NCBI RefSeq assembly: GCF_018977255.1
Contig: NW_024704742.1
Location: 72,976,001-73,040,000 of the forward strand
Length of the DNA stretch: 64,000 bases
Reading direction: 5' to 3'
From: Callorhinchus milii
Taxonomy: Eukaryota
In this document: positions 2,776 to 45,700 of the stretch, piece by piece
Layout of the letters: each line of letters opens with the position of its first letter
How positions within the stretch are numbered: position 1 is the first letter of the stretch
Made by a program: the position numbers and the translations under genes
Notes under the pieces: model-generated
Told to the model about the DNA's origin: nothing
Database searches by the model: none
What the model saw: only the letters and a program-made list of their open reading frames with translations

Positions 2776-3934
2776 TGTTCTATATTAGGAGGTCATTCAA
2801 CCCATTGTATTGTCAGTTCCTTGTAACACTCCGTGGACTGTGTGTGTTCGCATACAAAATACTCAGTGACTATACTTTACAGTAAATCCTATGAAATACT
2901 TTGAGATGTCCTCTTGACGTGAAAGCACTGAAACATATGCAAGAATTATTATTATGCAAACAATTCACAATTTCATAGTTTTCTATTTCAGTGATTTCCC
3001 TCTGGTAGAATGTCCTATTAGACAACAACAACAACAACAACAACAACAATAACAGTAGACAGCAATCGATAGCAGGTTCTATCATCAAATTTCATGATCA
3101 AAAAAAATCTCATGATGTGGCAAGCAGTGATAGCTCCATCACACAATGCACAGTTCAAAATCAGTTTTCCATAAATTCAATCTTTAATCTGCACACGTTC
3201 AAAGCACTTCAGATATTACCAGCTGAGTCATTGTGATTTGCAAGGAAGATGAAGGGGAAAAAGGATGATGTCGGATGGGGGAAGGGGAGACCATTATTAG
3301 TACCGCACACTGTGATCCAACAAAACCAAAAGAGATACAATCTGCTGGATGTATCACAGAGATCTCCACAGAAACACTACAGACAAATACAATTAACGTT
3401 ATCTGCAACTCAGAAAATTATAATACTTCTTACAATAATAATGTTTGATATACCTCATCAGAATATATCAAAGCACTTCTCACAAAGTTTTTTTTAGTAT
3501 GAAGTGTAATTTTTGTTGTTTAGTCATTTAATAACACCGTTAATAAAGTACAAACAAGTGCTAAATGTTGCTTGGTAATCAGAGATGAGAGTAAGTCCTA
3601 TCACTAACATTAACATTTCTGAAGCCCATTGCTCGCTCACATATAACTTGTATTGTTCAACTAAACCACAATTCTTATACTTTATATTGCCTCCATATTC
3701 AGTACAATGGTGGTTTATTACCAGCTTTAATGTAATAACCTAGACAAGAGTATCAAAACTGTGCCAGTGGTGAGGAGCTGGTAGACAGTAAAGGAAGTGA
3801 AAGGATCAGCATAAGCTGCCTTGTTGCTACATCAATTCAGTCAGGACACAGAAGGACCTTGTGCAATTGTTTCTGTTCTTAAATTATATTCTTAAATGTG
3901 TTAACCACAGAGGAAGAGAAACAACAAATTCTCA

Positions 3935-5846: not shown

Positions 5847-5996
5847 CTAGCCTAATTTGATATCACCAGCAAACCAAGTTATCAAGAGTATAAGACTGAA
5901 TCCAGTAAACAGACCAACATTTTGGATAACAAATATTATTATTTCTGATTTTCTTCCAGTTTCTAGTTCTTTACCGAGTTGGTTCATCTCTGGAAA
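5847..5996 (-). CDS. slc39a8: slc39a8 last coding exon: [49 protein letters not shown] (TM8)
   Basis: Acceptor ttttgtttag|TTT CCA GAG ATG; 150 nt to TAG at 5849-5847. Not in the ORF track. Confidence 0.96.
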   Translation of the reverse strand, partial: FPEMNQLGKELETGRKSEIIIFVIQNVGLFTGFSLILLITWFAGDIKLG

Positions 5997-8900
5997 CTAA
6001 ACAAAATAAATATGGCGTTATATTTTCAGAAGAAACCAAAACCATACAGTGCTCTTTTTTTATGGTACCAAAACTTTCTTTATGTTAATAGTATTAAATC
6101 TCTGGTGACAAACATCATAGCACAAATAAATGTGGGCCTGTTCTGTTTAGCGCTGCACTCCACAGAAGATCTGTGCTTTACCAGAAATGCATTACACTCA
6201 GATTCTGGCACTGACTACTTGACTGCCCATGTAAAAAATTGCAGAATTATGGGCTTGTCAGGTCACTAATAAGATCATTTTCTGTGCATTCTGTGCAAAG
6301 GAAACAATATCAGAGGTGCTTTCTGTCCAAATCGTGCATGCAACAACAAGCAGGAAGTGATGTCAGCAGAGACCTGACAACCCAGAAATTGGCCATTTTT
6401 AGTGCTTTCCTTACAACGTGGCCAGTGGACCCAGATGATCCCAATTTAACAAGGATCCCCTATAGTAGGCGAAATCTTGAAGTTCGTATAAAGGGTTTTG
6501 ACAATGGTTCAAGAGGATAAGACTGAATCAAGTAAACAGACCACACAGAATTGTACTGAATGCACAAAATTCATCGCACAGAATAGAAACACATAGATCA
6601 GGAAGGTCTCAGATTCTGTCCCAGATATGTTCACATTCTGAGAAAGGAAAACAGTGGGGATACTGCAATTATGTGGACTGAAGGTACATGAAAGGTTTCC
6701 TGTTCCTGATCACTATCACAGAACCCCGTTGGAAAGTGACTGCTAGCCAGGTAAGATAGCAATGATTAGACAAGCTGGAGCTCTTCAGTCTTAAGAGAAG
6801 ACAATTCAGAGGTGTAAACAATTTAAATGGGATAGAATTAGTAACCCAGAACAATTCTTCAGGATGCACCGAAACACTAGATTAAGAGGTCATAGGTGTT
6901 AGGTTGTAAAGGGCAATTTCAGACCAGATAACAGGAAGTGTTTTTTTACCCAAAGGATAATTAATGCATAGAACAGATTGGCGGGAAGGGTGGTTAAAGT
7001 CTGGAGGTTGGTCTCATTTATTAAATAGCTTGATGCTGCGATGGAAGGACAGGAGAGTGGGTGTTTTGGAGGGATGAGATCAGAATGACCGAAGGGCCTT
7101 CTTCATCCAAACCAATCTTGCAATCTTGTAACAGGATCAGTATTAACTATGGTGCCTCCTGCAATAGTCAATCAATATCTGTGCTATTAACACAAGGGAT
7201 GTGGAATGAAACGGCGCAAACCTTTCCCCAGTGTTCTTTAAACTCTTTTTTAAGCAACTTTTTATAATAAAACAAATGTTTTTGTTCTGTTCAATCAAAT
7301 AATTGTATCTTCTGCCTTCATTGTGTGACTCATTTCAAACAATACATTTTATTATAATTGTTAACAATATTGGAAGTAGCTGGAAATATAAAATTAAAAT
7401 ATACTCAACATTCTACAATATTTCAAGGGGAATAATCTAAGGGGATTCCTCTCATTGATATAATATACTAAAAATGTTACTTTCATGATTCAATCTCCAG
7501 AACCTCAGAACAAAGACTGGAGGCAAGGAGCAGAGAATGATATGACAATGGGGAGAAAATTAAGAGAATAATTGTACACACTTTTTTAAAAAAAGAAACG
7601 AATTGGATGTGAGGGAAGAAACTTTGGAGAACTTTTGCAGTAACATCTGTGTCTTGTCGGTGCTGTATCTGATTTGGAGTGCTACATGCTAACAATTCAT
7701 TTTGCACTTTTGAGAATTAAAACATGTTTATTTAATTTGAAGACATATTTTATACTTCTGAACGATTGCCAGCTAACTAATCAGCACAATTTCTCCTGTT
7801 AGTATCTTACCATATCAGCCAGAGAGATGTACAGGAACATTCCTCCAGCCAGCCCGAAGATGTAGTTTGGAGCAAAGTTGTTTCCTACTACTATGCCTAA
7901 CGTCAAACCGAGGTAACAGGAACACGCTGTCAGAAAGTTGAACGTTAGAGCCTGGGGAATAGTCATACCTGAGTTCAAAAGGATCATAAAATCTCCTAAA
8001 ATAATTAAGGAAAAACATGTTAAACAGTGAACATTTAGGTTAAACAAGACTAACATTTCATTGCAAGCTACTTTCAGTGTGTGCCTTATTACTGATGATA
8101 TGCTTCAGTATGTGTCATCTGTAATCATTCCTCACCTGGGGTCCTCTAATCAACCTTAATATTAATAGTTTTAATTTCTACACTTATTCATATTAAACTC
8201 CGCTTTATCAGGGTTCAACTTGTCTGGTTTGTGTTAATATTTCTAGCTTCTTCTCCACAAAATGTAACATTTCTCTAAACATCCTCCAAAAACAAGGCTC
8301 CCAGTCCCCACCTCTACACCTTTAACGAGTGATAAAGGACCTGGTACAGATCATCGTGGTACTTCAATAGCCTGTTATTCAGCATTGCATAATTAACATA
8401 GGTCTATCTAGCTCAACTTTTCAATTTTTCCTTCAAAACATCTAACACACCCACAAAATATACAATCAATTTATTTTACAGTATATTCTGTGAAGCACTT
8501 TGAAATGTCTCGAAGACACGATAAAGCGCTATATCAAATGCAAGGATTATTATTATTATTATATTTCATTGCCAAATAAAGTGTATCACACTTACCTAAA
8601 AATTCTTTCATACTTTAGTACCTCCCTATCTGGGATCATTTCCTACCCCACTCTTCCGCTCACCCTCTCCATTCATGCCTGCTGCACATCCTTTTCTGTC
8701 TCCGTATCACCATTAATGATCAACTACCAGCTATCAATTACTATGTCCCTAACCTCTGGAACTAACCTCTCTCTGCTTCTCCATCTCTCCCCCCTCTCTA
8801 GTTTAACTCACGTCAAAAAAACAAAATCTTCGATCCCTTCCTCCTGTTGCTGTAATATAATAATGATCTTAATATTTGATACATCAACTTTCATATCAGA

Positions 8901-11900
8901 AGGACATTTCAAAGCACTTCACAGGATATCCTGCAAAGTTTTTTGACTGTGTAATTTGTAGGTGAACACAGCAGCCAATTTGCACACAGCAATGTCTTAC
9001 AAATGGCCATGAAGTGAATGATCAATTTTATTTGGGGGATTGTTGGCCAGGACACCAGGATAAACTCCCTTCTGTTTTAGAGTAGTGCCATGGGATCTTT
9101 AATGTCCATCTGAACAGGCAGCAGGTCCTTGGTTTAACGTCAAATCTGAAGAATGGCACCTTTGACAGTACAGCACACTCCAGCACCTCATTGCAATGTC
9201 AGTCTAGACTGTAAGCTCAAAGTCCCAATGTAGGGTTTGAGCCCACAACTCCTGTTCCTACCATGAGCTACATTTCTAACTTTCATCACCTACAATGCAC
9301 CACGAGTTTTTATACAAATTAGCTCAAAGTTACGACCTAAAATTCTTATTACTTATTTAATATCTTGGAAATTTGTCATGATCAGTGTGCTCTTAACACA
9401 GTCCACAATCTCATTCCCCACCAACTTAATTCTGCTCATCCCGCCCATCTCAAGTTTCCTTACTCCACACGCCTAATAATAATCCCTCCAAAACAAAAAA
9501 CAATAATAAATTGGTCATTTTCAATCCATGACTGTTTGTGGGACATTGCTGTGCGCAATTGGCTGCCGCGTTCGCCCACAAAAATACAGTCAATTCACTT
9601 TACAGTATATTCTGTGAAGCGCTTTGGGACGTCTAGAAGACGTGAAAAGCGCTATATCAAATGCAAGGATTATTATTATTATTATTATCTCTCAGTTCCT
9701 CCATTCTCAGCCTGACCAACACAAGAGCTCTAGAGCTATGACAAGGCTAGCATTTGGTACTGTGCTCTCTTTCCTTTGATTATTCTCGAGCAGCCAAAGG
9801 CAGGGAAATGCCATTGGACTGCAGAGATTCCCCCAACACCCTGGGGACGAGTTGTCAATTCCTGTTTCAAAATGCTTGGTCTCCATACTACCTACAGTAC
9901 CACAATTGAAATCAGGAGCTGACTGTTATTGTTTGGCTCACAAGTGAGTCTTACTTCATCTGTAAGATTGTTTCATGTTACCCACCATCTCCGCGATACC
10001 ATTGGTGAGTGGATGTTCTGGCACTTTGCTCCGCTCTCTGGTACCTTCTTCTGAATCTGTTTGGCTTGCTCTACCCACCCTCATCTCTCTCTCTCTGCTT
10101 TCAAAAGCCATGTAAAATTCTACCTCTTTGACTGAAACTTCAGCCGCCTCTCTCCTCCCCCCATGTCTTCCCTCCAGTCCAGGCATCTGGAAACACTTTA
10201 AGACATCCTCCTATATAAAATGTGCTATATAAGTGCAATGTGTTGTTTATTGTTATAATGATAATAATAATAATCCTTGCATTTGATATAGCGCTTTTCA
10301 CATCTTCTAGACGTCTCAAAGCGCTTCACAGAATATGCTGTAAAGTGAATTGACTGTATATTTGTTCTGGGTTCACCTTGAGGAAGTAAAATGGATTAAA
10401 ACATCTTTTTGAATTCTCTTACCCAGCTCATGAAGAAATTCCTCACACAGTATTGCAATAGACGTGCTGAACCCCTGCGCTATGGATACTGTGAATGAAA
10501 CACCAATGGCAAGGCCGTCAATGAAGTTATGGGTACCGTCACTCAATGTTAACATCCAGGCTAAAGCAGAGATTTCAGATAATTTAGTTCTCCTAAACCA
10601 TGGACTGGATTGCTGTGACTGTGCTTCCTGTAATACAGTAACAGAATGAAGTAAATGATTCACGTTAAACCAGCAGTAAACTTTCTATTCATTTCATCTT
10701 CTTAGCAAAGTTTTGGTAAAAGTTGCTTACAGGCTCACACAGTGATGGAAAACATTAAATGTGTTTTCTATACATCTATGATCACACTGCTATTTCTGAA
10801 AGATGAGAAGCAGTATGAATGAATATACACTCTGGCCACAGCAAACAAACAGTACATAAAACAATTAAGTGTCAACCTGCTCAGCTGATAATAGCACTCT
10901 CGCCTTTGAGTTAGAAGGTTGTTGGTTCAAATCCCACATTGGGGCTTTGAAATCATAGTTTTGAGTTTGAAATGCAAGGATTTTTTTTTATTATTTAATG
11001 CAGTGCTGGGGTGTGTTGCATTGTTGGAGGTGCTGTCCTACGCACGAGGCATTAAACCAAGGGTTCCATCTGCCTGTCCAGGTGGACGTTAAAGATCCCA
11101 TGGCACTATTCGAAAAGAGAAAGGAACTTCTCTTGGTGTCCTGGCCAACAATCCCCCAAATAAAGTTAATTATTCACTTTCATGGCTGTCTGTGGGACAT
11201 TGCTGTGCACAAATCGGTTGCTGTGTTCACCCAAAAAATTGATTTGCCTCCTGTAAAGTGCTCTGAGACTTTGCAATGATGTGACTAGGTGCTTTATCAA
11301 ACCCAAGGATGATAATGATAAATAAAGATCCATATGCAATCTCAGGACTTGCACTTGTGCTTATTGTTATCTGCTCATGCTATAATTACTGTAGAAGTTA
11401 ATGCAGTGCAGTTATTCAGCATACTGTATTTCTTGCAATTTAACAATTATGAGAGCAAGAAACATATCATTGAGATATTGGTCCTGAAATTCCAAAAAGT
11501 CTTAACCTGAAAGACTATTTTGTCTTAAAATTGAAGATTGTATAAATCTGGTACAAAATTCTTCAAGTCAGTCCAATTTGCAGCTGATTCTCTTTTAAAA
11601 AAACAGTGGAAAAGTGGCTCCCAAATTAAGACTAAATTGAAGAATTGTCCACACTTGCATCTTAACGTTCAAAATAATTTTTGGGGGGTCAGCCGGGAGG
11701 GGACAACTGAGTGTGCGTTGGTGTACTGCTGGAGTCTAACCAGCTAAAACCGCATAGCTTGCCACTGTTCAGGACAAAATGGTCTGAACAAGTCAAAACT
11801 GGATGGAATTTGGGACTCATTGTTTACAGATTTCTAATATTCAAATATTATATATTTATCTAGTATATAGATAAAAATCCCCTGCCTAAAAAACATCTGA

Positions 11901-14900
11901 ATGTCACGGTGTGACGTCACAAGGGTATATTTCACTATCCTTCTGCTACCTTGTCCTCCCTTCCCTCCTGGACTTTGGCACCTGAGCCATGGCCACCATC
12001 TCCTCTCTGCCCCCACTGAACTGTCTCCCATAGCCCAGGGGCTGATGCTGTCCTGCTAATCGCTTGCTCCCAGTCTCTGCGTGTGCGTTTTCCCTGCCAA
12101 CCCGACCCGAGCCGCGGCCCCTGTAAATGTTCCTGCTCCTACCCCTCACACTCGGCTACTCCCACTCTGTCCTTTTCTCCCACCATCCTCCTCATCTTCT
12201 CTCTCTTTTGGACTTCACCATTACCTCCCTCTGCTCCAGCCTGGGCATGCTCCACCAGGCCCAGTGTTGGTTGTCCCCAGAGCAGCCACATCAACTGTCC
12301 CATCACTCACTCTCTCCGCAGCAACCGCCTCCAAAAAGCAAACACCCCTTCCCCTCCCTCATCCATATCCTCCCCAACTCTCCCTGCTTCTCAAACTCCA
12401 CGCTCACTTCTCCCCCACAACCCCAAATCCTCTCTATACCATTCTCTCCTCCATCCTCCCACCAGCCCCTCTGGCTGCTTCTCCTCCTTTGAGCACCTCA
12501 TCCCTACTCTCCCTCACTCCCTCAAAATTCTCCTAGTTTACCCATCCCCCCCAAAACCTCCTGGCTCCTTCCTCACTGATATATCCTCTCTCCTCTCATC
12601 CCTGTCCCTCTGCACTGAACACCTGCTCATAATGGGTGATTTCAACCACCAGCTAAATTCTGCTTGCACCACCTCCTCAGATTTCACTGTCCTCCTCTCC
12701 TCCCTAAACCCCACAACCATGGCCACTCCCTCAACCTCATCATCATACATGGCCTTGACATTTCTGATCTGTCCTTGACAGACAAGGCCATCTCGGACCA
12801 CTTCCTCATTTCCCTCTCATCCCACATCCCCCTCCCCTCTTCCAAGCCCTCCACCATTATTTTCCACCCCTGGAAAAAGTTTCCTCCTGAGTTCTTCACA
12901 AATGCCCTCTGTGCCTTAGACCCCCTCTCCCTCCAGCCCTCCACCAGCAGTGATCCTGATGTAGCATCAAGCTGCTGAATGACTATTTCTCCACAACCTT
13001 CAATTTCCTGGCTCCCCTGAAATCCAGGGTTGTTTCCAAACCCACCGCTCCCCCTGGTACAACACTCATATGCGCTCACTCAAAATACAAATCTGGATGC
13101 TCGAGCACAGATGGCAGAAATCTGGTCTCACGATTCACCGCCAGCTGTGGCTCGAGCACCTCCTCACCTACCGCCTCTCCCTTTCGCAGGCCACAACTGA
13201 CTTTTACTCCAAAGTCATCTTGGAGGCAAACAATAACCCAAAGATGCTGTTTTCCACCGTCCATCACCTCCCCTGTGCACCCCCTCAAGCCCCTCTATCC
13301 TCACATCAAACGCCAAGTGCGAAGAGTTCCTAGACTTCTTTGCCTCAAATATTGAGAACATCCACTTGGCACATATTCCTTGGCTCCCGTCAATGTCTTC
13401 ACTCCTGCAGATCTAAACTCCTCAACCTCCCTGGGCTCTCCCTCACACTCATCGAACCAGTGCGCAATCTAAGCTTTCACTTCAACCCCCAGCTGTCCTT
13501 CCTCCCCCACATCTGGTCCCTGACCAGGACCACCATTCTCCACCTCCACCACATTGCCCGCCTCCAACCTTACCTTACCCAAAATGCAGGCAAAATCCTT
13601 GTGCATGCATTTGTCACCTCCCGCCTGGTTTGCTCAAAATGTCCCTTCCCTCTCAAACAAAGCCCTTACCATCCATGACCTCATCCTGGACGAGCACCTT
13701 GACATTCTGGGGCTCACCGAAACCTGGTTCTCCTCCAATGACCCCCTAGTTGAAGGCTACCCTCCAGGCTAAACCTTCCACTACACCCACCCGTCCAAAT
13801 CAACATGGCGGCGGGGTGGCCTTCATTTCCAAAGCCTCCCTTGGTCTTATCCCCTACCCCTCTGGCTGCTTCCCCTTCTTCGAGCACCTCACCCTCTTCC
13901 ACCCCTCTCTCCCATTGAAAATCCTCCTTGTCTACCACCCCCCTAAGCCCCCCAGCTCCTTCCACACAGACATCTCTACTCTCCTCTCTTCCCTATCCCT
14001 CTGCTCCGAACGCCTGCTCATAATGGGCGATTTCAACCTCCACCTAAACTCCTCTTGCACCACTTCTGACGTTTTCACTGCCCTCCTCTCCTCCCTAAAC
14101 CTCACCCTTCATATAAATTCATCTACCCACAACCGTGGTCATGCCCTTGACCTCGTTATCACCCATGGCCTTGACATTTCTGACCTCAGCATAGTGGACA
14201 AGGCCATCTTGGACCACTTCCTCATTTCCTTCTCCTCCCACATCCCTCTCTCCTCCACCAAGCCCTCAACCATCCTCTACCGCCCTTAGAAAAGGCTACC
14301 CCCCAAGACCCTCACAAAGGCCCTCTCATCATCAAACATCCTATTCCTCTGGCCTTCCACCCGTGGAGATCCTGAAGCAGCCGTCCAACTGCTCCATGAT
14401 CACCTCTCCTCCACCTTCAACTCCCTCATCCTCCTGAAATCCAGGACCATCTCCAATCCCACCCGATCCCCCTGGTACAACAACCATCTCCGCCGCCTGA
14501 AAACCCAAACCCAGCTGCTCGAACGCAGATGACGGAAAACTGGCCTGATAGTTCACCGCCAACTGTGGCTCGAGCATTTCCATAGCTACCGCCGTTTTTT
14601 GACACGCGCAAAAACGACCTTCTACTCCAACATCATCTTGGAGGCTAAACACAACCCTAAAATCCTTTTTTCCACCACCCACTACCTCCTCCGTGCTGCC
14701 CCACAGGCCTCTTCAATCTTCATATCCAATGCCAAGTGCGAGTAAGTCATGGAATTTTTTTTATCTAAAATACACAACATCCACCAGGCAGCCTCATCCA
14801 CCTGTCCCTTGTCACCAACCACCACCCCCTCTCTGTCCCCTTATCCTCCCCATCATCTGCTCCTACCACCATACCCATCCTACATTCCTTCCTCCCCATT

Positions 14901-17900
14901 TCTCCCTCCTCCCTCTCACCCACCATCACCTCCATGAAACCCAGCACCTGCTGCCTCAACTCCCTCCACACCAACTTGCTGGTCACTCAGCTCCCCCTCC
15001 TCTGCCCACTATTGGCTGATGTCATCAACCAGTCCCTCTCCTCCGGATCAGTCCCTGCCCTCTCAAAACTGCTGTCATCACCCCCCTCCTCAAAAAACCT
15101 TCCCTAGATCCCTCAAACCCCAGCCACTATCGCCCTATTTCTAACCTTTTGAAGCCCTTGTTGGCAATCATCTTCGCGCACACCTCTCCTCCCACTTCCT
15201 CATCGAACCCCTCCAGTCCGGTTTCCGCCCTGCCCACAGTACAGAGACTGCGCTTGTGAAAGTCACAAACGACATCCTCTCTATCTGTGATCAGGGCTCC
15301 CTCTGCCTCCTTGTCCTCCTGGACCTCTCCACCGTGTTCGACACAGTCGATCACGCCATCCTCCTCCACTGCCTTTCCTCCATCATCCACCTCAGTGGGA
15401 CCACACTCGCCTGGTTCGAGTCCTACCTCACAAACCGGCAGCAGTACATCTGCACAAACGGCTTCTCCTCCCACTCTCACCCGGTTACCTGCGGGGATCC
15501 ATCCTTGTCCCCCTCCTCTTTCTGATCTACATGCTCCCTCTTGGGGATGTCATCCGCAGACATGAGGTACATTTCCACATGTATGCGTACGACACCCAAC
15601 TCTATTTTTCCACCTCTCTTTGCGACCCCCAGTCCATTGATGTTCTGTCAGCCTGCCTGTCCGATCTCAGGGCACAAATTTCCTTCAGCTGACAGTTGAC
15701 AAGACGGAAGCCATACTCTTTGGCTCTCGTCAACATCTAAAATCTCACGGTTCCCACCTCCTCTGCCTATCCAACCTCCCCCTAGAACTCTCCGAACCCG
15801 TACGCAACATAGGCATCAGATTCGACCCACAATTATCCTTCCTTTCCCACATCCGGATCCTCATCAGCACTGCTTTCTTCCACCTCCGACACAACACCCG
15901 TCTTAGCCAATACCTCTCTCTGAAACCTTGGTCCATGCCTGTGTCACCTCTCGGCTGGAGTATTCAAACACCCTCCTCACCGGCCTCCTCTCCACTACCA
16001 TTCATAAAATCAAGATTATTCAAAACTCTGCTGCCCGCATTCTCACCCGCACCAAACTCTGCTCCCGGTTACCCCAGTCCTTGCCAGACTGCACTGGCTG
16101 CCTGTCCCAGAGAGGATTGACTTCAAGATCCTCACCCTTGTATTCAAGTCCCTGCACTCCTCCACACCCCCCTACCTCTCTGACCTCCTCTCTCCTCAAG
16201 ACAGTGCCCATTGCCTTCGTTCTTCTGGGTCTGGCCTCCTCCTCATCCCCCGAGTCCTCCGCTCCACCCTCGGCGGCCGTGCGTTCAGCCACTGTGCCCC
16301 GAGGCTCTGGAACTTCCTTCCTCACTCCTTTCACCTCGTCCCCTCTCTTCCTATTTTCAGGTCTCTGCTGAAGACCTTTCTTTTCGACCGCGCCTTTGGT
16401 CACCTTCCTCCCCCTCCCCCTGACTCGGGCCTGGGATCCGTTACTGTGAAGCGCTCTGAGACACCGTCCGGCGTGGAAGGCGCTATATAAATCCAAGTTG
16501 TTGTTGTTGTTGTTGTTGTACTCAAATGCACTCCTCGCTGGTCTCCCCAGCTCCACTATTCAAAAGATCCAATTCATTCAAAACTCTGGCGCCCACGTAT
16601 TGATCTGGACCAAACGCCGTACCCACATCTCACCAGTTCTGGCCAGACTCCACTGATGCCCCATCACCAAATGGATCGACTTCAAGATCCTTACACTCAT
16701 GTTCATATCCCATCACTCCCTGACACCTCCCTACCTCTCCGACCAACCTCCTCAGTCCCCAATCCAACACTCAGCGCCTCCGTGCAACTGGCACCAGCCT
16801 CCTGCTCGTCCCTCGCACCCTCTGCCCCACCATCGGAGGTCACACATTCAGCCACTATACTCTGAAGCTCTGGAACACTCTTACTCAATCCTTCTGCCTT
16901 GCCCCCTCTTCCCCTTTTTTCAAGTCCGCTTGAAAACCTTCCACTTCGATCGTGCTTACGACCACCTCCCACCCTCCCCACCCCCGGCTCGGAGTCAGGA
17001 TCCGCCATTGTTAAGGTTCTGAGTCGCTACCGTTGCATGGAGGGCGCTATATAAGTGGAAGTTGTTGTTGTTATATCACTTGACTATAAACAAAACAAAT
17101 CATCACAATTGATGGCATACAGTTCAGTTGAGGAAACAAGTAAATCAAACAAAACATGTAAAAACTTGTTCAGTGGGCTGTATGGACTGGATAGTCATAT
17201 TTTATTCTAGGTTACATTTTGTTCTTAAATTCATAACAATGTTTCATAACAATGTTTGGGTATTGTTACCTGAGTAGCAATATTGTTTTCATTCCACGAG
17301 TGATTCACTGGACTCTCTAATACTATGGTGTCATTGCCAGGATTAGAAATTATATTTGTCTGGATCACCATCGAAATACCACCATTCTTCTCATGAGAAG
17401 CTTGTTGATCAGGAAGCCTAAAATGACTGTGGTGCTACATGAACAAAGATACAATGAGTAAGAACAGGAGACATGGCAAATAACACTTAATTGGTAAATG
17501 AAGTTTAATATAGGAAAATGCAACAAAATTCACATCCGCAAGAAAATTAAAGAAACCGTTGGAATCTAATAGGAATAGAGGAGCAAAGAGATCTGGGGAT
17601 TCAGATCCACAACTCTCTAAAAGTAGCTACACAGGTAGATAAGGCTATAAAAAGGCCAATGGGATATTGGGCTTTATATCCAATTCTGGTCTCCACACTA
17701 TAAGAAGAATATAGAAGCGATGGAAAGAGTACAGTGTAAGTTTAACAACAACAACAACAACAAGATTCCATTTATAAAGCGCCTTTCACGTCAGGAGGAC
17801 GTCCCAAGGCGCTGCACAGTTGGGTCATGACCCGAGCAGGGGGAAATGGTCAGGGTGAGGGGAGGGGGAGGGAGGGAGCGAGGAGGGGGGAAATGGTCAG

Positions 17901-20900
17901 GGTGAGGGGAGGGAAGGGAGGGGCGAGGAGGGGGAAGAGAGTCGAGAGGGGAGCTGAAGGCTCGGTCAAAGAGAAAGGTTTTGAGACCGGCCTTGAAGGA
18001 GAAAGGGAGGAGGCGGCGAAGGCACTGGGGGATGGAGTTCCAGAGCCTCGGGGCTGAGAGGCTGAAGGCCCGACCACCGATGGTAGGGCGGTTGGGGCGG
18101 GGGACGTGGAGCAGACCGGAGCCAGAGGAACGGAGAGTACGGGCAGGTAGGTAGGGGATGATACCAGGGCTGACAGTTTACTGCTGTCAGAATAGACTGG
18201 GCCTTTTTTCGTTGGAGAAGAGATATGTGAAGGGTGCGAACAGAAATGTTTAAAATTATAAAAGGGTTAACATAAATAGGCTGTTTCGACTGGTTGGGGA
18301 GTCTGCAACAAGAGACACAAATTTAAGATTGCGACCAGAGAATTAAGAGCAATTACTTCACACAGAGAGCGGTGAGACTGTGGAACTCACTGCCTAAAGT
18401 GGTGGTTGAATCAGCTAGTGTATATGCATTCAAGAGGAAGCTAGACCTTCACATGACCGAGAGGGGAATAAAAGAGTATGGGAGGGAGTAACAAATAAAT
18501 GAAGACTTAAGTGGTGTATGTGCACGGACTGGTTGGGCCAAGTGGCCTGTTTCCGTGCTGTATATTCTTTGTAACTTTCTTTACAAGTGTGTGTGGATTT
18601 GGCTACATATACTAGTAAACAAAATCAACTTTGATGTTTGCTTAATGTACGCAGCTAATTAAGAATGTGGGGAAAATGTAATTGTAACAAACCTTTTTTC
18701 TCTATTTCAATCTCATTTTTCTTCAGATTCTGAAACAATTCTATAAGGTACATGTTTCTACTTGTGAGTGAGCCAAAAATGAGAAGGCATATATATAAGT
18801 TTGCTGGTAGTAGATCTAATAATAATAATCCTTGCATTTGATATCGCGCTTTTCACGTCTTCGAGACGTCTCAAAGCACTTCACAGAATATACTGTAAAT
18901 TGAATTCACTGTATGGGCAAAACATGGTAGCCAATTGCGCACAACAGTGTCCCACAAATAGTCGTGGTTTGAAGTGACCAATTTAGGTTTTTTTACCTTG
19001 AGAGATTATTATCAGGCTTGTGGAGTAAGGAAACTTGCCCAACATTTCGCCCTGCTGGGAATCGAACCTACGTCTCTCGCTTGCGAGGCGAGTGCTCTAA
19101 CCACTGAGCTACAGGACTCCATCTAATAGGTAGTTCAGGAGGAATTTCAACACACAGAGGGTGGTCAGAATGTGTTGAACTCACTGCTGGAAGCTGTGGT
19201 TGAAGTAAACAAGCATTAATGTATTTAAGAGAAAACTGGATGCTCACATTGAGGAAGAAGGGCATATAGAGATATTGGAGAAGGGAATAGGAAGGGTGGG
19301 AGCTTATGTGGTATAGAAACATGAGCATGGATTGTTTGGGCTGAATGGCCTGTTTCCGTGCTATATCATTCTATGCATTGTGAAGTGAATGGGTTACTGT
19401 GAGCTATTTTTCTATTTAGTACCTCTCAGTGGTAGTTATCCTCATACCTCTCATGTAATTTTGATATGCATGCATACATAAAAACATTAAATGAAACCTT
19501 TAAATTTCATTAAAGGTACTTATAAGTACACTGCAGCAAATTGGCAACCTATGCCAGTGACACAACATAGTACCTAAGGCAAGAATATCACTACATGGAA
19601 TGGACAGAACAGAGTGAGTGTTGAACGTTCAGTTGAGGGTAACAGTCCCAACCAAGAGATTCTGTCATGAATGCTAGAACTCGCAGTGATGGGTCACAGG
19701 TCTGTGTACCTGTCATTCCTCTCTATTTTCTAAGTGTCATCACCTCATTATAGCAATGCCCAACCTTCTGTTGCGAAAGAGTAAGAAAACAATACAATAC
19801 AAAATTACATTTGTATAGCTCCTTTCAAGTTAAGAGAATGTCCCAAGGCACTGGACAGTCAGGGATTTGGACCCGAGCTGGGGGGCGGTGGGAAAGGAAG
19901 GGTGGAGGGCAGAGAAGATAGGAAGGTGGCCGAAGGCGTGATCAAAGAGGAGGGTCTTGAGACATGCCTTGAAGGAGTCAAGGGAGAGAGCGAGGCAAAG
20001 GGAATGTGGGATGGAATTCCAAAGGGTGGGGGTTCAGAGGTTGAAGGCCTGACCGCCGATGTTGGGGCAGGCCAGGCTGGGCACATGGAGCAAGCCGGAG
20101 CCTGCTGAGCAGAAAAAGCGGACAGGTTAATATGGGAGGCATCAGCATGGAATTAGTGAACATCCAAAGCCAAGGAACACGTGAGAGAAGCAGTCCATTT
20201 TCCAAAGGCCAGAGATGATTGTGAGGAGAGCCATGTATGGTTCTGCATCATACAACACCTCTGCTTTATTTTATAACACTTGGCAATGACCGGCACAGCA
20301 AAGGTTGACATTCTTTTTGTCTTACTTGCTCATCAGGCTGAAGTAATATTTTAAGTATCTTCTCTATGAAGAAAAGGAGATAGAATCCACCAAGCACAAC
20401 CACTGATTTCAAAATATAATCATTGTCTTGGGGCATAAGTCCAAATGCCTAAAAAAAACACAGAGATATTTAGTAGAAGCAGAAGGGAAATGGGCAGACA
20501 TTTGCAAATTATTTAAGTTTGTCCTTATTAGCCATTTTCTTATGGTCTATATTACATATAAAATAGGTCTCATTGTCAAAAGATATGAGAAGTATGCAGT
20601 CATTTGGGAATATATTTAAATATCTCATTATAATTCCACAATAATTAAAAGCAAAAGGATCAACATTTTAAGGCAAAATGGACTAAAGGACAATTTTCGT
20701 GCCTAAACTCCTAAATGAGACTTTTGTGTTAACTTACACTTAAATTCTACCTTTCTCATAGGATGAACATCATGAAGTAATCCACAAAGATGAGGAGCAT
20801 GATGATAATAATAATAATAATAACAACAACAATAATAATAATAATAATAACAATAATAATAGTAGTAGTAGTAGTTTCATTTGATATACTGCCTTTCATG

Positions 20901-21857: not shown

Positions 21858-24800
21858 CCTTGCATTTGATATAGTGCTTTTCATGTCGGGAGGACGTCCC
21901 AAAGCACTTCACAGAACACACTGTAAAGTGAATTGACTGTATATTTGTGGGTGAACGCGGCAGCCAGTTGCGCACAGCAATGTCCCACAAACAGTCGTAG
22001 ATTGAAAATGACCAATTTATTATTGTTATGGTTTTTTTTTGGAGGGATTATTATTAGGCGTGTGGAGTAAGGAAACTTGCCCAAGGTTTCACACTGCCTG
22101 GAATTGAACTCAGGTCTCTCGCTTGCAAAGCGAGTGCTCTAATCACTGAGCTACAGGACATGTACTGATTGCTGGGTGAGTTTATGCTGGCAATGGATTA
22201 AGATATGAAATTTGTTTGTTAATGTGTTCCTTGTGGTAATTATCACTAGGGTGTCGAACATCGTAAATTGTAAACATTAGAATTGTGCATGAATATTTAT
22301 TTCTTTGTTTAATAATTTAATATTGGAACCAGCAAAGTGCAACAAACAATCTTTGCCGGCACATTCCCGGATTCCAGAATCCTCAGAGTTCAAATTTATA
22401 AAATGAAACGCATTAAACTAACTCCATAAAGTGCACAACATTTGTGCCCTTGGATAACGGATGCCAAGTAGTTATTTTAATTATAATTATAGAGCACTAA
22501 CAGGGATATTCATAATGCCTACATATAGGAGGAAGGAAATGAGTATTCCCTCAGATTCATTCCTTATGATAATTCTCACTGAATGTTGACCAAATTACGC
22601 TCAGAAGCAGTCAATAGTTATCACTGGGTTCAGAGGTAAATCTCCCCCCTGAAACCAGTGATAATACCGAATGTATTTGACTGTCCAATCATTGCGAGTG
22701 ATGTTATAACATGCTGCATTTTCCACCTCACTATTTTTCCACCACTGAGAGATTAAAGCAGATAAACTGAATGTGGTTCACCAGGAAGAAGCACTAAACA
22801 GTGTCCTTGGGATCTTGTAACGGAAACAATCCTTCCTCTAGATATCAGCCTGGTGCAACTGATAGCACTCTCAGCTCTGAGTCAGAAGGTTGTGAAGTTG
22901 AGCTCTCTTTTGGTACTTTGAGCTAAAAACTGTCTAAATTCCATGGAATTCTCTATCAAGAAAAATGTTGACACTACTGGAATTGGAGTGGGGGGAAACG
23001 TAAGACATGTTTTGTTAAAATACAAATTCTGCAGATCTTTTTTTCTGTTGCAAACATTGCCACATTACTAGAGTAAGATCCTTTACCGTTACTCATTAAA
23101 GGGTAGGATTCATTACAGCATTATTTTCCTATTCAAAGTCCATCTTTTCCAAGGTTTTTATTACTAATATTAATATAGTGCTAATGTACTGTGCCAGGAA
23201 CCATGGTGATGGATTGGGCAGCAAATGATTGGGACCCTGATTAACCATAGAACATAGAATTATACAGCACAGAAGGAGGCCATTCGGCCCATCGTGTCTG
23301 TGCCGGCTCTTTGAAAAGAGCTATCCAAATCAATCCCACTCCTCCGCTCTCTCCCCATAGCCCTGCAAACTTGTCCTCCCCAAATAATTATCTACTTCTC
23401 TCTTAAAAGTTGTTATCAAATCAGCTTCCACCATCCTTTCAGGCAATGCATTCCACATCCGAACAACTCACTGTATGAAAAAATTTCTCCTCCCTTCCCC
23501 TCTGTTTCTTTTAACAACTATGTTTAAGGCACTCATTCTTTCATTTAAGCACCTTGGGACGTCCTCATGACGTGAAAGGCGTTATACAAATGTAATTTTG
23601 ATATTTCAACTATTGCTGCTTTTTGACCTAAATATCTTTAGAGTGGATCTCTCCTCCTCCTTGCATTGTTGCTAGGTTACTGGAGCTGGTTAATCTCACA
23701 AGCTAAGGAATAATAATAATAATAATAATCCTTGCATTTGATATAGCGCTTTTCACGTCGGGAGGACGTCCCAAAGCGCTTCACAGAACACACTGTAAAG
23801 TGAATTGATTGTATATTTGTGGGCGAACGCGGCAGCCAATTGCGCACAGCAATGTCCCACAAACAGTCGTAGATTGAAAATGACCAATTTTATTATTGTT
23901 TATTTTTTGGGGGGGGATTATTATTAGGCGTGTGGAGTAAGGAAACTTGCCCAAGGTTTCGCCCTGCCTGGAATTGAACTCAGGTCTCTCGCTTGTAAAG
24001 TGAGTGCTCTAACCACTGAGCTACAGGACTCCGCAGGTCTCCTGCACATCCCAGCCCGTGATTGTCTCGGTCACTTCCCATTTGCTGGAAGGTTTTAGGG
24101 AAGGTGTATGGGACATTCTTGAAACTGGCAAATTCATATCATAACAGTTATTCTTTCAGAGTGAGGTTTAATATTGATAATTATAAAGTACTAAGTATAG
24201 CATCCAAGAATAGGAAACACAAGTGCTCCATGGATGGGATAGTATATTAAGTTTAATATTCAAGTTACGTTTGACTCAATATTGACACTTGGCTGACCAC
24301 AAAGCAAACATGATGATTATTTGTGAAAAGCGCTAAATTTACCACAAGAACTCAGGGTGACAGACTCTTAATTGAAGAATGTTCTTCATAATGGACGGCA
24401 GCACCGACTGACACAGAAAGCTCCTTACCTCTGGAATAAGTTGTAAAATAGCATTGGAGAAAACTGACCCAATGGCTAGGCCCATAAAGCAGATCATAAC
24501 CTTTGGAAAATATGTTTTTTTGGTGAGAGGAATAAGTGCAACACCAAACAGGGAGGTAAGGTTGATGATAGTGACAGTCAGGAACCCGAAACCCCACACT
24601 GTGAACAGAACAGAATTAAAAAATAATAATTATCCTTGCATTTGACATGGCACTTTATCACATCTTTGAGACATCTCAAAACGCTTCACAGAATATACTG
24701 TAAAGTGAATTGACTATATTTTGTGGGCGAAACGCAGTAGCCAATTGTGCACAGCAGTGTCCCACAAACAGTCGTGGGTTGAGTGCCCAATTTTTTTTAA

Positions 24801-27800
24801 GAGCTTACTACCCCCGGAAAAGCGATCTGCCAATCAAGTAACAACCGGGTTCCTACTTATAATAATAATAATCTTTGCACTTGACATAGCGCTTTTCACG
24901 TCTTCTAGACATTGCAAAGTACTTCACAGATTATACTGTAAAGCGAACTGATTGCATATTTTGTGGGCAAAAAGGGGCAGCCAATTGTGCAGAGCAGTGT
25001 CCCACAAACAGTCGTGCATTGAGTGACCAAATTATTATTGCTTTTTTTTAGGGATTATTATCCCCTGAAAAGCAATCCACCAATCGACTAACAACTAGGT
25101 TCCCACTTACTGCTAAGTAAGCAGAGGTGTGTGGAGTAAGGAAACTTGCCCAATGTTTCGCCCTGCCAGGAGTTGAACCCAGGTCCTCTCGCTTGTGAGG
25201 TGAGTGCTCTAACCACTAAACTACATGACTCTACGAATCAGGACTTTGACAATCCTTTGTCAAATACTAACTGTATTTGGCAAAGGATAACAATAGAAAT
25301 GCAATTTTAAAAGAGACTTTGTAACACGCCTATTTCGGCCCGAGCTGAGATTAGCTAATTTAGTGCAAAACCTTCAATTTTCATTCTGAAATGCAACCTA
25401 ATCTTAGACTCTAAGACTATTTTGTCTTTAAATTTCAGATCATACAGAATGGTGGAAGTTGTTTTAATACAATCTTACTTTGGATACCGTATTCGTGCAG
25501 TTCTTATAAAGAATTGTCTCCCAAATCAAGACTAAAATTAAGGATTTCTGACAAGTCAGCACAATCTAAACGCAACTGATCTAGCAATACAGGCCAGAAT
25601 CCTGTTTATCTTGTTTATTGCTTCCTCACACTGTTTTGACATAGTGAGCAACAAGTTAACTAACGCTCCTAGATCTCTTTCAGCATCCCCAATGGCAAGT
25701 TCTGTCCATTCATGAGCACTTGTGTTTCCTATATGCAGTGCTTTACATTTATTAATATTAAACTTCATTTGTCAGTTATTAGCCCATGGGCAGACCCCTG
25801 AGGCACCCCATTTAGAACTCTTCATATTTTGACCTCGCTCCCCTTCTTCCTTTCCTTCAGCCAATTTTGAATCCACATCCATATATTGCCCTTAATACCT
25901 AGTGACCATTCTGTCAGGAGTAATATCCCAACAATTCACACTAGTATAGATATTTGCCTAGAAAATAGTCATTGCACTCTACAGTAAATAATGTTAGTGC
26001 TTTGAAATGTTTTGAAGATGTGATAATAACCCTCAAGAAAAAAAACAATAATAAATTGGTCACTTCAATCCACGACTGTTTGTGGGACATTGCTGTGCGC
26101 AATTGGCTGCCGCGTTTTGCCCACAAATATACAGTTAATTCACTTTACAGTATATTCTGTGAAGCGCTTTGAGACGTCTAGAAGACGTGATAAGGCGCTA
26201 TATCAAATGCAAGAATTATTATTATTATTATTATAAGGCCCTATAAGCGCCTTGGGACGTCCTCCCGACATGAAAGGCGCTTTATAAATGGAATCTTGTT
26301 GTTGTATATCAAATGTAAGAATTATTATTATTAATTATTACGATAGTTGAGTATTACTGCGATTGGCACGAGAAGCTCGGACCATTTAGACTCATGTGGA
26401 CTAGTTGGGCCAAATGGTCTGTTTCTATGCTGTTGAGATCTATGTGTGGAGAATTACATTACTACTGGTGGTCAGGCCACTTTCTGATGCTAACATCTTG
26501 CTTTTGATCTTTACAGTAATACTGCATTTTCAGCTCACTTGTGGGCCAATTTGCTACTCACACAATACTGCACCTCAGTATCTACCTGGTCATTTTGGCT
26601 GAAGTCCATTTTGATTGTTATCAGCGAGCTTTTACTTCACATCAGAATCAAAACAATCAAGTTTACTCACTTACGCTCTTAAAAGAAATGGTTGCAGTAC
26701 TAAGATGAAGCGTGCAGGGGCATGTTTTACCTTCGGTGGCAGATGGCTTTTTCTTTACTGTCTCACTTGAGATGCGTGAAGACTCAACCACTGTTTTCTG
26801 TAGAATAGTATTGTAGATATTTCTCCAATCTTTGGGCAACACTTGATTTGAGGCATTCTGCTCCCTCAGGTGTAATGTTTTTGCAGAGGACAAGCACTGC
26901 AACACAAAAGGAAAAACTGCAATAACTTACACAGCAAATACAGAACTTGAGTGGTACAGATACTGCAGACTGAGGAAAGAATAAAGCCCCATAAATAATA
27001 CAGTATTTTGTTCCTCTGTATTACTGTCCAGTTCACATTGATCAAACTTGTGCCCAGGTTATCCTCAATCTATGCAGTAAGTAACACTTTGTGTAATATA
27101 TCTAGGATATAGAATACTCAGGGCTTCACAGTATCATTAGTTCTTACATCAGTAATCTGCTCTAATTAGAAGTAGTTTACAATTTTTTTTTTACAAAGTT
27201 TAGCCCTGCCAGCCTTTCCTCATGATATAGAATCCTAAAGTTTGGAGTCATCTTTGTCACCTTCCTTTGGACACTTGCCAGCAGTACTGAGGAAGTGCTG
27301 CATTGTCGGTAGTGCGGTCCTTCGTTCACCTATAGATTTACAGTCACTACTCTTTCCAGAAATGCTACAAAGTACTTTGAGACGTTCTCAATTAAATAGG
27401 TACAATATCAAGTGCAATGATCATTATCCTTCATTCTGGAAAAACACTAGGAAAAACTAATATATTGTATCACTAAAATAAGTGAAATATTGGATTCTTC
27501 TTTGCCTAGCATATACCCTTTCCAATTAACTGTACCAACCTTACAGTGCCATGAATTGTTACCTGTTTCTGGATATTTGCTTTAGTATTGACTAACCTTT
27601 GCATTTCCTTACCTTTATCCGTGATTTTATGATGTCCTCCAATGCGTCTGCATCTGTTTTTTGCACATTGACAATTCCCAATTTATCCAGTAGTTTGTGG
27701 TGTTGCTTTGCAGTGAGTGTTTCATCGTTACCATATTGGTTAAGGATGTCCTCAACGAATGCCTTTGGAGCAACATTTTGACTGAGCACAGAGTTAATGA

Positions 27801-27831
27801 ATAATATACTGTAAGCAGCTAAGGCAAACAT
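5847..27831 (-). CDS. slc39a8: Metal cation symporter ZIP8 (SLC39A8), complete spliced CDS: join of complement(27613..27831, 26731..26896, 24429..24598, 20326..20448, 17270..17434, 10423..10627, 7811..7995, 5847..5996), 460 aa
   Basis: Eight exons of 219/166/170/123/165/205/185/150 nt sum to 1383 nt with consistent phases, GT-AG boundaries and no internal stop. LIV-1 ZIP motifs HNFIDG, CEEFx[20 protein letters not shown] and IQNxG are present. GNNFAPN and the C-terminus are ZIP8-like rather than ZIP14-like. The gene is divergently adjacent to nfkb1, as in human 4q24. Confidence 0.95.
6690..7130 (+). mobile_element. Old CR1 3' fragment
   Basis: Degenerate CR1 C-terminal coding region and 3' UTR (agaggtcatag, gaagggccttcttcatc). 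Confidence 0.6.
7811..7995 (-). CDS. slc39a8: slc39a8 coding exon 7: [11 protein letters not shown]...[11 protein letters not shown] (TM6-TM7)
   Basis: Acceptor ttttag|GA and donor ATG|GTAAGA; 185 nt. Confidence 0.97.
8855..9270 (-). mobile_element. Deu-domain (SacSINE1-like) SINE
   Basis: Reverse complement of ttaaagatcccatggcacta...ggtgtcctggccaaca...gctgtgtgcaaattggctgc. Confidence 0.75.
9450..9688 (+). mobile_element. tRNA-Ala SINE, 5'-truncated
   Basis: caagtttccttactccacacgcc followed by the Deu-like body and (tta)n tail. Confidence 0.88.
10423..10627 (-). CDS. slc39a8: slc39a8 coding exon 6: EAQSQQ...[10 protein letters not shown]...CEEFLHELG (TM4-TM5 metal site)
   Basis: Acceptor tattacag|GAA and donor CTGG|GTAAGA; 205 nt. 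Confidence 0.97.
10870..11320 (+). mobile_element. Deu-domain (SacSINE1-like) SINE, near full length
   Basis: tRNA-like head (gcactctcgcc..gag..agaaggttg..ggttcaa) and Deu core caggtggacgttaaagatcccatggcacta. Confidence 0.8.
11479..11819. mobile_element. Old non-autonomous DNA element with short TIRs; internal motif shared with 25400-25545 and 58187-58317
   Basis: tggtcctgaaattcca / tggaatttgggactca ends; shared motif aagactattttgtcttaaaat. Confidence 0.5.
11940..17072 (+). mobile_element. Nested L2 LINEs: outer, internally deleted L2 (11940-13635 plus 16519-17072) containing an inner L2 spanning most of ORF2 (13636-16519)
   Basis: APE motifs (LTETW, GGGVA, IMGDFN, LDLVIT), RT motifs and two separate (ttg)n tails. 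The outer element reads ...SRL before the insert and resumes [10 protein letters not shown] after it. Confidence 0.9.
17270..17434 (-). CDS. slc39a8: slc39a8 coding exon 5: [11 protein letters not shown]...NIATQ (cytosolic His-containing loop)
   Basis: Acceptor ttcatgtag|CAC and donor CAG|GTAACA; 165 nt, open, phase 0/0; begins with an HxHF motif. Not in the ORF track. Confidence 0.9.
17470..18575 (+). mobile_element. CR1 3' fragment split by an L2 insertion
   Basis: CR1 coding similarity 17470-17743 and 18158-18575, ending ggccaagtggcctgtttccgtgctgta. Confidence 0.8.
17744..18157 (-). mobile_element. Young L2 3' end, same subfamily as 873-2775
   Basis: Near-identical to 873-1230, with a (caa)n tail and an internal tandem duplication. 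Confidence 0.92.
18818..19120 (-). mobile_element. tRNA-Ala SINE, full length, short form
   Basis: Head ...ctgagctacaggactcc, body and (taa)n tail. Confidence 0.9.
19125..19375 (+). mobile_element. CR1 3' UTR fragment
   Basis: cacacagagggtggtcagaa...gggctgaatggcctgtttccgtgcta. Confidence 0.75.
19790..20130 (-). mobile_element. L2 3' fragment
   Basis: Tail aaaattacatttgtatag..ctttca..tcccaaggc.ctggacag and L2 C-terminal coding remnant. Confidence 0.85.
20326..20448 (-). CDS. slc39a8: slc39a8 coding exon 4: [41 protein letters not shown] (TM3)
   Basis: Acceptor tttttttag|GCA and donor CAA|GTAAGA; 123 nt; [10 protein letters not shown] motif. Not in the supplied ORF track. Confidence 0.95.
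20802..20874. repeat. Compound (TAA)/(CAA)/(TAG) microsatellite derived from a SINE tail
   Basis: Visible repeat followed by a minus-strand SINE tail remnant to about 20960. Confidence 0.9.
21118..21570 (+). mobile_element. tRNA SINE, long form, with an L2 tail inserted at about 21259-21337
   Basis: Head, central ctctgtttacctagcagtaagtaggaacccgg segment, Deu-like body and tail. Confidence 0.9.
21783..22159 (-). mobile_element. Young tRNA-Ala SINE (short form) with an expanded (ATC)n(ATA)n tail
   Basis: Near-identical to 23709-24032 and 30427-30745. Confidence 0.92.
23246..23530 (-). mobile_element. CR1 3' end
   Basis: catagaacatagaa...cagcacagaaggaggccattcggcccatcg. Confidence 0.85.
23709..24032 (-). 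mobile_element. Young tRNA-Ala SINE (short form), full length
   Basis: Complete head, body and tail. Confidence 0.93.
24429..24598 (-). CDS. slc39a8: slc39a8 coding exon 3: [19 protein letters not shown]...NAILQLIPE (TM1-TM2)
   Basis: Acceptor ttcacag|TG and donor GAG|GTAAGG; 170 nt; strong ZIP8/14 TM1-2 similarity. Confidence 0.96.
24622..25233 (-). mobile_element. Two tandem long-form tRNA SINEs (24622-24858 truncated; 24859-25233 complete)
   Basis: Body and tail occur twice, with one head at 25130-25233. Confidence 0.88.
25560..25910 (-). mobile_element. Old CR1 RT fragment
   Basis: [30 protein letters not shown]. Confidence 0.75.
26020..26305 (+). mobile_element. SINE body and tail (26020-26235) followed by an L2 tail (26245-26305)
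   Basis: Deu-like body, (tta)n, then gcgccttgggacgtcctcccgac..(ttg)n. Confidence 0.85.
26731..26896 (-). CDS. slc39a8: slc39a8 coding exon 2: [10 protein letters not shown]...KKKPSATE (ectodomain)
   Basis: Acceptor ttttgtgttgcag|TGC and donor GAAG|GTAAAA; 166 nt, phase 0 to 1. It begins CL and ends PSxxE like the ZIP8/14 ectodomain exon. Confidence 0.85.
27613..27831 (-). CDS. slc39a8: slc39a8 coding exon 1: [34 protein letters not shown]...KSRIK (signal peptide plus ectodomain)
   Basis: ATG at 27831 is followed by a hydrophobic leader, and the donor is AAG|GTAAGG. The coding part is 219 nt, the size recalled for human. A likely acceptor (tgtgtttag|) lies 14 nt upstream of the ATG (exon start about 27845), implying an unlocated non-coding first exon. 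Confidence 0.88.
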
Positions 27832-32169: not shown

Positions 32170-33170
32170 ACGTAGACAGCACTCATCAAGGTCACATATG
32201 ACATCTTCTGTCTCTGCGACCAGGGTTCCCTCTGCCCCCTTATTTTCCAGAACCTCTTCTCTGCTTTTGACTGTGCCTGCTCCTTGACCATCTGTCCTCC
32301 TTTATCCACCTCAATGGTACTGTCCTTTCTTGGTTCAAGTCATACTTGACACAGCGCCACCATTTTGTCTCCTCTTGCCCCCACATGGCCACCTGTAGTG
32401 TAGCCACTCCTTTTTCTCATTTACATGCTCCCTCTCAGCAATGTCATCATCTCATGGGATCAACTTCCATATCTTTATAGATGACACACAAATCTATTTT
32501 TCCTCCTCTAGTCATGAGCCCAGTCCTACCGATGCTCTGACTGCATGCTTTTCTGACACTAAGGCATGGATAAGCTCCTACTTTCTGCAGTTGAACACAG
32601 ACAAGACAGAAGCCATCCTCCTTGGTTCCCTTCGACATGTTCTCACCTGCGGTTCTGAACTCCTTAACCTTCCCCGCTTATCCCTCACACTCACCCAACC
32701 TGTGCACACCTTTGACAACAAGTTTTTATCCGCCACTGACCTTCCCATCCCACATCCAGTCCCTAACCAGGATAGGGGTCAGCGCCTTGGGATGTCCTCC
32801 CAATGTGAACGGCGCAATACAAATGTAATTTTGTTGTCGTTGATAGGCAAGCAGAGTTTGGTGCGGGCAAGGATGCATACAGTAGGTTTGAATGAGGTAC
32901 ATCTTGTGCATGATGGAATAGGGGAGACTGGTGAGAGGTGAGTTAGAGAAGTTATCAGGAGGTAACAAAGGAGTGAATGAGAGCTTCAGTGGTGTTTTTT
33001 TGTGAGATGGGGCGGAGGCGGGCAATGTGGCAAAGGTAAAGAAAATTAGTCTTTGTCAGGTACCAAATGTGAGGAAGGAAGTAGAGCTGAGAATCAAACT
33101 GAACGACAAGGTTGCACACTGATATGGTGAGTTTGAGAGAGAGGCCAAGGAGGTCGAGCAGGTCAGAAGG
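32170..33170 (+). mobile_element. L2 RT fragments (plus strand 32170-32842, minus strand 32850-33170)
   Basis: HGINFH..DDTQIY and FLQLNTDKTEAILLG. Confidence 0.8.
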
Positions 33171-45500: not shown

Positions 45501-45700
45501 AGTTCCACCATACACAAAATTCAACTAATTCAGAACTCTGTTGCCCGGATTCTCACCCGCACAAAACTCCATACCCCCATCACACCAGTCCTTGTCAGGC
45601 TCCACTGGATCCCAATTACCAACCAGATCAATTTCAAAATCCTTTCAATCATTTTAAAATCCCTTCATGCGTTCGCACCTTCAACTTGTTGTTGTTGTAG
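42590..45700 (+). mobile_element. L2 fragment (42590-43201 and 45451-45700) split by a CR1 insertion
   Basis: [21 protein letters not shown] is continuous across the insertion. Confidence 0.88.
43202..45450 (-). mobile_element. Young CR1 LINE, 5'-truncated, about 2.25 kb, with a nearly intact RT domain
   Basis: About 450 open codons with [43 protein letters not shown] and FADD; two apparent 1-nt frameshifts; (ttcttatg)n tail. Confidence 0.96.

Follow-up and report, generated by a model that had tools for sequence, protein, structure and literature searches.

The genome of Callorhinchus milii contains a ZIP8 gene (slc39a8) in which a leucine (P346L) occupies the TM5 position held by proline in all other ZIP8 and ZIP14 proteins aligned here. 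The gene lies within the window, the 64,000-nucleotide stretch of DNA that we analyzed. The replacement is the most striking part of a real, probably fixed, lineage-specific erosion of ZIP8. Judging from sequence comparisons, we give about an even chance to the reading that C. milii ZIP8 is an intact gene encoding a working but weakened importer on which selection is relaxed and whose usual Mn, Zn, Fe and Cd range is likely kept.

The gene consists of eight exons on the minus strand (27831-5847 of the window) separated by GT-AG introns. These exons, found by a script and bounded by AG/GT ends, form an open reading frame of 1,383 nt and translate exactly to the 460-aa protein XP_007890061.1. 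The gene identity and residue numbering proposed in an earlier note on this DNA were borne out. Exon 1 (27613..27831; splice-checked translation) carries the ATG, the signal peptide and the start of the extracellular domain, and exon 2 (26731..26896; alignment and translation) encodes the second half of that domain, from which the CPAL-type motif has been lost. According to the alignment, exon 3 (24429..24598; TM1-TM2) contains L163M, T173S and L174V and keeps Q181, the counterpart of human Q180. From their translations, exon 4 (20326..20448; TM3) shows F189L and F204L, and exon 5 (17270..17434) encodes a cytoplasmic loop with His. Exon 6 (10423..10627; alignment), which covers TM4 and the first half of TM5, includes T302A, T313, A324V and P346L along with the ligands D311, H314, N315, D318, E343, E344, H347 and E348. 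The remainder of TM5 as well as TM6 and TM7 are encoded by exon 7 (7811..7995; alignment), where D351 and N357 are kept and V353M and S372T are found, while exon 8 (5847..5996; translation) provides TM8, L441F and the stop codon. Hence, all nine metal ligands are present in an open frame, as the earlier note had stated. On the minus strand, 10447-10424 reads CEEFLHEL, with the Leu346 codon CTT at 10433..10435 and a GT donor at 10422. The EEFLHE motif reported previously at 10424..10447 was thereby confirmed by the window sequence, by the 100% match of its exon to C. milii ZIP8 and by XP_007890061.1 itself. Intron 6 contains a very high-copy short repeat at 10281-10370, common to two related organisms (B and C, see below). 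LINE-type reverse-transcriptase/endonuclease fragments were also observed in the window at 44103-45524 and 2217-2792 (minus strand) and at 32399-32941 and 13750-14289 (plus strand).

Leu346 is real, and an assembly error or a rare SNP is very unlikely. Six of the 24 listed sequencing runs were examined, leaving out the richest run as the possible source of the assembly. In samples X2 and X4 (same organism, one study; depth 9.2 and 7.1), contigs spanning 10339/10341-10750 had no letters other than those of the assembly, with one contig each over codon 346 and no second contig there. A second protein record, V9KLR1, which we take to derive from mRNA, has Leu346 and all other changes, and differs from XP_007890061.1 at residue 59. 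The SNP or base-call error raised in the earlier note, for which it had proposed inspecting reads at 10434, has the appeal that CCT to CTT is a single transition and that rare variants are dropped from contigs. However, the occurrence of Leu in X2, X4 and V9KLR1 practically eliminates this explanation, and CCT was not found in the contigs of these two samples. No RNA run was listed among those containing the Leu346 exon, and X16 and X17, presumed to be RNA runs, yielded no contigs over it and were uninformative on expression.

To place this change, we aligned 172 ZIP8/ZIP14 proteins of at least 300 aa with the motif, two of which were from C. milii. The proline was present in all 170 others (113/113 ZIP8 and 57/57 ZIP14), which upholds its presumed near-invariance, and Leu was not found to be common among ZIP8/14 orthologs. 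A motif tally of 221 proteins gave EEFPHE in 212, EELPHE in three and EEFLHE in two, both from C. milii, with the motif absent in four. Among the best 150 of 6,229 cluster representatives, 147 aligned over the motif, comprising 144 with Pro, C. milii ZIP8, one aberrant row and one gapped row. Proline is likewise found at the aligned TM5 position of BbZIP and in the other LIV-1 exons seen in the C. milii genome. A ZIP1/3-like gene of the same genome (L005, C21:7.337-7.339 Mb) has a TM5 without Pro, indicating that a ZIP fold is possible without this residue. The TM5 of this gene reads HEVLA; in ZIP1/3-like TM5, the His is usually followed by Lys.

A 2023 review called the TM5 proline completely conserved in LIV-1 proteins, with an unproven role (PMC9861476). 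P180 and P210 put kinks into TM4 and TM5 of BbZIP, apparently enabling the ligands to close around the metal (PMC5573306). In humans, the ZIP14 change P379L is recorded as a patient allele, in the homozygous state, in manganese overload (HMNDYT2; PMC9886663, PMC6517356), and P379 corresponds to the TM5 motif proline since ZIP14 numbering includes E376, E377 and H380 (bioRxiv 2025.08.09.669477). According to another review, no functional study of P379L was available as of 2023 (PMC10452680). Our searches found no paper on alanine or leucine mutants of the TM5 proline, none with both slc39a8 and Callorhinchus, and no description of C. milii P346L in the literature searched. The main texts of PMC12753238, PMC13671036 and PMC12439942 do not mention P346, and their supplements may list P346 variants.

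In a tree of 26 chosen proteins, C. milii ZIP8 was sister to a sawshark ZIP8-like protein (support 97/93) within the ZIP8 side (100/100). Its terminal branch was 1.03 compared with 0.18 for its own ZIP14, and that of lungfish ZIP8 was 1.32. On contig C1, the gene is flanked by a DBB-domain exon at 72.81 Mb and by RHD exons at 73.05-73.07 Mb, which from these domains would be BANK1 and NFKB1. This neighbourhood fits the human gene order, presumably BANK1-SLC39A8-NFKB1. Tree and neighbourhood thus indicate a ZIP8 orthologue by descent, yet one that departs from two LIV-1 signatures: it reads EEFLHELGD where the family has (H/E)ExPHExGD, and it lacks the CPAL motif and the downstream extracellular Cys (C101Y, P102N, C113S). 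Other family characters are in place, as the Pfam Zip domain (PF02535) scored 198 bits against a cut-off of 35.1, the nine ligands of the LIV-1 TM4/TM5 binuclear site are kept, and the ZIP8/ZIP14 subgroup marks (E343 in place of His, filter residue Q181) are present. The AlphaFold model predicts the eight membrane helices of the ZIP fold, with pLDDT mostly 86-95, and its top ten Foldseek matches were BbZIP (E 6e-5, prob 1.00). A search of solved structures with the Leu346 exon alone gave no match. The only other ZIP8/14-class locus found was a separate ZIP14 on C28 with EEFPHE; no second ZIP8 copy was found in the genome, the locus counts being lower bounds. One LIV-1 ZIP gene was seen twice with near-identical exons (C2:3.21 Mb and C70:21-26 kb; L015-L017, L025, L026), either as a recent duplicate or as an unmerged haplotype.

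P346L had been treated as an isolated change, but it is one of 13 distributed across the gene. Near-invariant sites were defined as the 123 columns in which 95% or more of the 170 non-C. milii ZIP8/ZIP14 proteins agree. C. milii ZIP8 differs at 13 of them, across six of the eight exons (own numbering: C101Y, P102N, C113S, L163M, T173S, L174V, F189L, F204L, T302A, A324V, P346L, S372T, L441F). The singly sampled controls were C. milii ZIP14 (0/123), sawshark ZIP8-like protein (3/98), coelacanth ZIP8 (2/121), lungfish ZIP8 (4/123) and hagfish ZIP14 (6/123). A further six rows showed 8-12 differences in the membrane part; these mostly fell together within a single stretch, a pattern typical of mispredicted exons, and no row outside C. 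milii reached a spread of six exons. The overall rate against the sawshark protein was significant with one of nine outgroups (p 0.03-1.0), the 13 changes did not differ from neutral in mean severity (p 0.20), and A324V introduces the residue found in BbZIP. The C. milii genome was reported as the slowest-evolving among vertebrates (PMC3964593). The cartilaginous-fish comparison for ZIP8 consists of one other, partial protein (sawshark), so some of the 13 changes may be old and harmless. T313, also singled out earlier, was confirmed and is unique, but its site varies more than had been thought: of 113 ZIP8, 99 have L, nine V, four M and one I. The lungfish ZIP8 and a similar protein (P0142/P0139) have EELPHE, D410S and the longest ZIP8 branch, and may represent a second relaxed-ZIP8 lineage.

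The extracellular domain has lost two cysteines. C101Y and P102N (26810..26815, minus strand; alignment) remove the CPAL motif, which is located at the dimer interface (PMC4915132, PMC13671036), and C113S (26777..26779, minus strand; alignment) is the change known as a loss-of-function disease allele of human ZIP8 (PMC5816659, PMC13671036). A compensated frameshift hiding CPAL in exon 2 was rejected, as no other frame of this exon encodes the motif. Human C113S was described as ER-retained with Mn uptake abrogated (PMC5816659). In another report, human ZIP8 retained 23% activity with C113S, 72% with P102A and ~30% after deletion of the whole extracellular domain (PMC13671036), so that a weakened rather than a dead transporter would be the expected outcome. 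With the same 56-row alignment, residues 71-110 had a pLDDT of 44-66 in C. milii and 68-81 in sheep ZIP8, a weak signal from models that cannot show a kink change. A search of the ESM Atlas with the extracellular domain returned uninformative scores, all below 0.9. Outside this domain, before TM4, C289 (Cys in 100/113 ZIP8 and in organism C) is another lost cysteine, being Ser in C. milii (residues 288-289 at 10609-10604, minus strand).

Organisms B and C are likely other chimaeras, as suggested by their alignable intron. Their exon 6 contigs, covering 10407-10605/10640, keep T302, V313 and A324, and therefore T302A, T313 and A324V arose on the C. milii line. This dating relates to sites 302, 313 and 324, codon 346 being unreadable in these contigs, where 10434 is only 28 bases from the contig end: near the ends, a difference at 31 bases was listed and one at 25 was left out, and two X9 differences within 10407-10437 went unlisted. 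Some conserved sites have changed in B and C themselves (T308L in B and C, I317V in C), and the relaxation of ZIP8 may thus predate the C. milii line. For exon 6, dN/dS was 0.28-0.29 against two relatives (44-62 codons). We also simulated neutral decay by adding random mutations to the coding sequence up to the point where conserved codons had changed in the same proportion (3,000 runs, ~74 substitutions). No stop appeared in 12% of the runs, and 3% had no stop and kept all nine ligands, before frameshifts; with indels assumed at 5-10% of substitutions, 8% to 0.7% of runs were free of frameshifts. Both the dN/dS values and this simulation suggest that selection on C. milii ZIP8 continues. No chimaera or shark ZIP8 exon proteins were found among 35 short matches in a lossy search. 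Similarly lossy searches recovered one elasmobranch ZIP8-like protein, from a sawshark (P0002, UniRef UPI00398EDC96). This record is flagged as low quality, is missing its 180 N-terminal residues and contains an unusual loop, and the ZIP14 proteins of skate, smooth-hound and catshark were found whole. The erosion of ZIP8 may extend to sharks and rays, which we offer as a lead only, without claiming a loss.

If C. milii ZIP8 is a weakened importer, the loss of C101, P102 and C113 would reduce folding and delivery to the cell surface, as seen for human ZIP8, and the loss of the TM5 proline would stiffen the kink that lets the TM4 and TM5 ligands close on the metal. A stiffer TM5 would slow the elevator cycle, an effect that L173V (human numbering; own L174V) may offset in part, and ZIP14 would carry much of the metal load. 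The 13 of 123 changes over six of eight exons, compared with none of 123 in its own ZIP14, and the branch lengths of 1.03 and 0.18 argue for this reading. Against it stand the rate test, significant with a single outgroup, and the longer branch of lungfish ZIP8. A dead or nearly dead gene, in which the loss of transport is so recent that stops have yet to accumulate, would fit a protein carrying counterparts of two human disease alleles (ZIP14 P379L and ZIP8 C113S), the latter abolishing Mn uptake in one human study (PMC5816659), and would agree with the low-quality flag of the sawshark record. However, the frame is open, the splice sites are canonical, and a neutral origin of the 13 changes spares frame and ligands in 3% of simulated runs, of which 0.7-8% would escape frameshifts at the assumed indel rates. 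Full neutral decay is unlikely, and we regard a dead gene as distinctly improbable, although ZIP8 may have been lost recently after earlier relaxed change.

The pairing of L173V with P346L hints at compensation rather than decay. M99 (TM2) and P210 (TM5) of BbZIP co-vary despite being 11-15 A apart, too distant to touch, in inward-facing structures (PMC9873690). Published equivalences (BbZIP M99 = ZIP4 L372; BbZIP S106 = ZIP4 H379 = ZIP8 Q180) would map M99 to human L173 and C. milii Val174 (24462..24464, minus strand), seven residues back from Q180, which makes Val174 a candidate partner of Leu346. The L173 site is Leu in 169/169 ZIP8/14 and in 137/140 diverse representatives, and never Val; a smaller Val facing a larger Leu would fit a volume swap. 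A fully active transporter, in which changes at the TM2/TM5 sliding interface (L173V, T172S, V353M) offset the proline loss and the extracellular domain is loosely needed, is therefore a possibility that we hold as doubtful. The domain was reported as dispensable for transport (PMC13671036). On the other hand, the pair was picked post hoc and a partner change by chance has p about 0.10 (12 other changes, 122 columns), M99 was mapped by residue count from two papers as our alignments with BbZIP do not span TM2, and changes across six exons are left unexplained. The more specific proposal, that a LIV-1 transporter could be fully active without the TM5 proline or the disulfide-linked dimer motif because L173V (scaffold helix) makes up for P346L (transport helix), appears rather unlikely. 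Adaptive retuning toward another metal preference or another cell compartment could account for changes flanking the binuclear site (T313, L346, T372) and for a dimer-motif loss resembling the short domain with degenerate motif of ZIP7/ZIP13 (PMC4915132). ZIP8 selectivity was reported to rest on Q180 and E343 and to be modified by C310 and N357 (bioRxiv 2023.06.19.545588). In C. milii, Q180 (own Q181), E343 and N357 are unchanged, position 310 is Ser as in most ZIP8 shown, and the changes are scattered with no cluster at the pore entrance. Retuning is thus quite improbable; of the two effects suggested earlier, altered kinetics are plausible and altered selectivity finds little support since Q180, E343 and N357 are unchanged.

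A wild vertebrate with both the TM5 Pro to Leu change and ZIP8 C113S offers a ready residue set for studying elevator mechanics and interpreting patient variants, and C. milii ZIP8 is a natural test of the role of the TM5 proline. If the compensation were true, it would supply the first proof from nature of the TM2-TM5 contact predicted for the outward-facing state, and L173V would act as a second-site suppressor of the defect that P379L causes in human ZIP14. Should the gene instead be fading, a jawed-vertebrate lineage would be reducing its reliance on a transporter that guards people against manganese deficiency. These implications concern one gene of a known family that is already in databases, and the proline could be tested by plain mutagenesis without C. 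milii ZIP8.

Among known systems, human ZIP8 p.Cys113Ser (PMC5816659, PMC13671036) is the identical residue change at the aligned position, whereas C. milii ZIP8 also lacks C101 and P102 and its surrounding domain has diverged. Vertebrate ZIP8 proteins (sheep P0122, coelacanth P0066, sawshark ZIP8-like P0002) are 51-66% identical to C. milii ZIP8 and have its ligands and filter residues in common, while C. milii differs by P346L, the CPAL loss, C113S, L173V and nine further changes at near-invariant sites. BbZIP of Bordetella bronchiseptica (PDB 5TSA, 8CZJ) shares the fold and its TM5 motif aligns, but it keeps P210, has 14-17% identity and is devoid of a LIV-1 extracellular domain. The patient allele human ZIP14 p.Pro379Leu is the identical Pro to Leu swap in the identical motif; in C. 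milii, the swap sits in ZIP8 as an ordinary allele of a wild species. In compensated pathogenic deviations, a residue that causes disease in humans is normal in another species. C. milii ZIP8 resembles these cases in that the disease residue is normal, although relaxed selection is at least as good an explanation as compensation.
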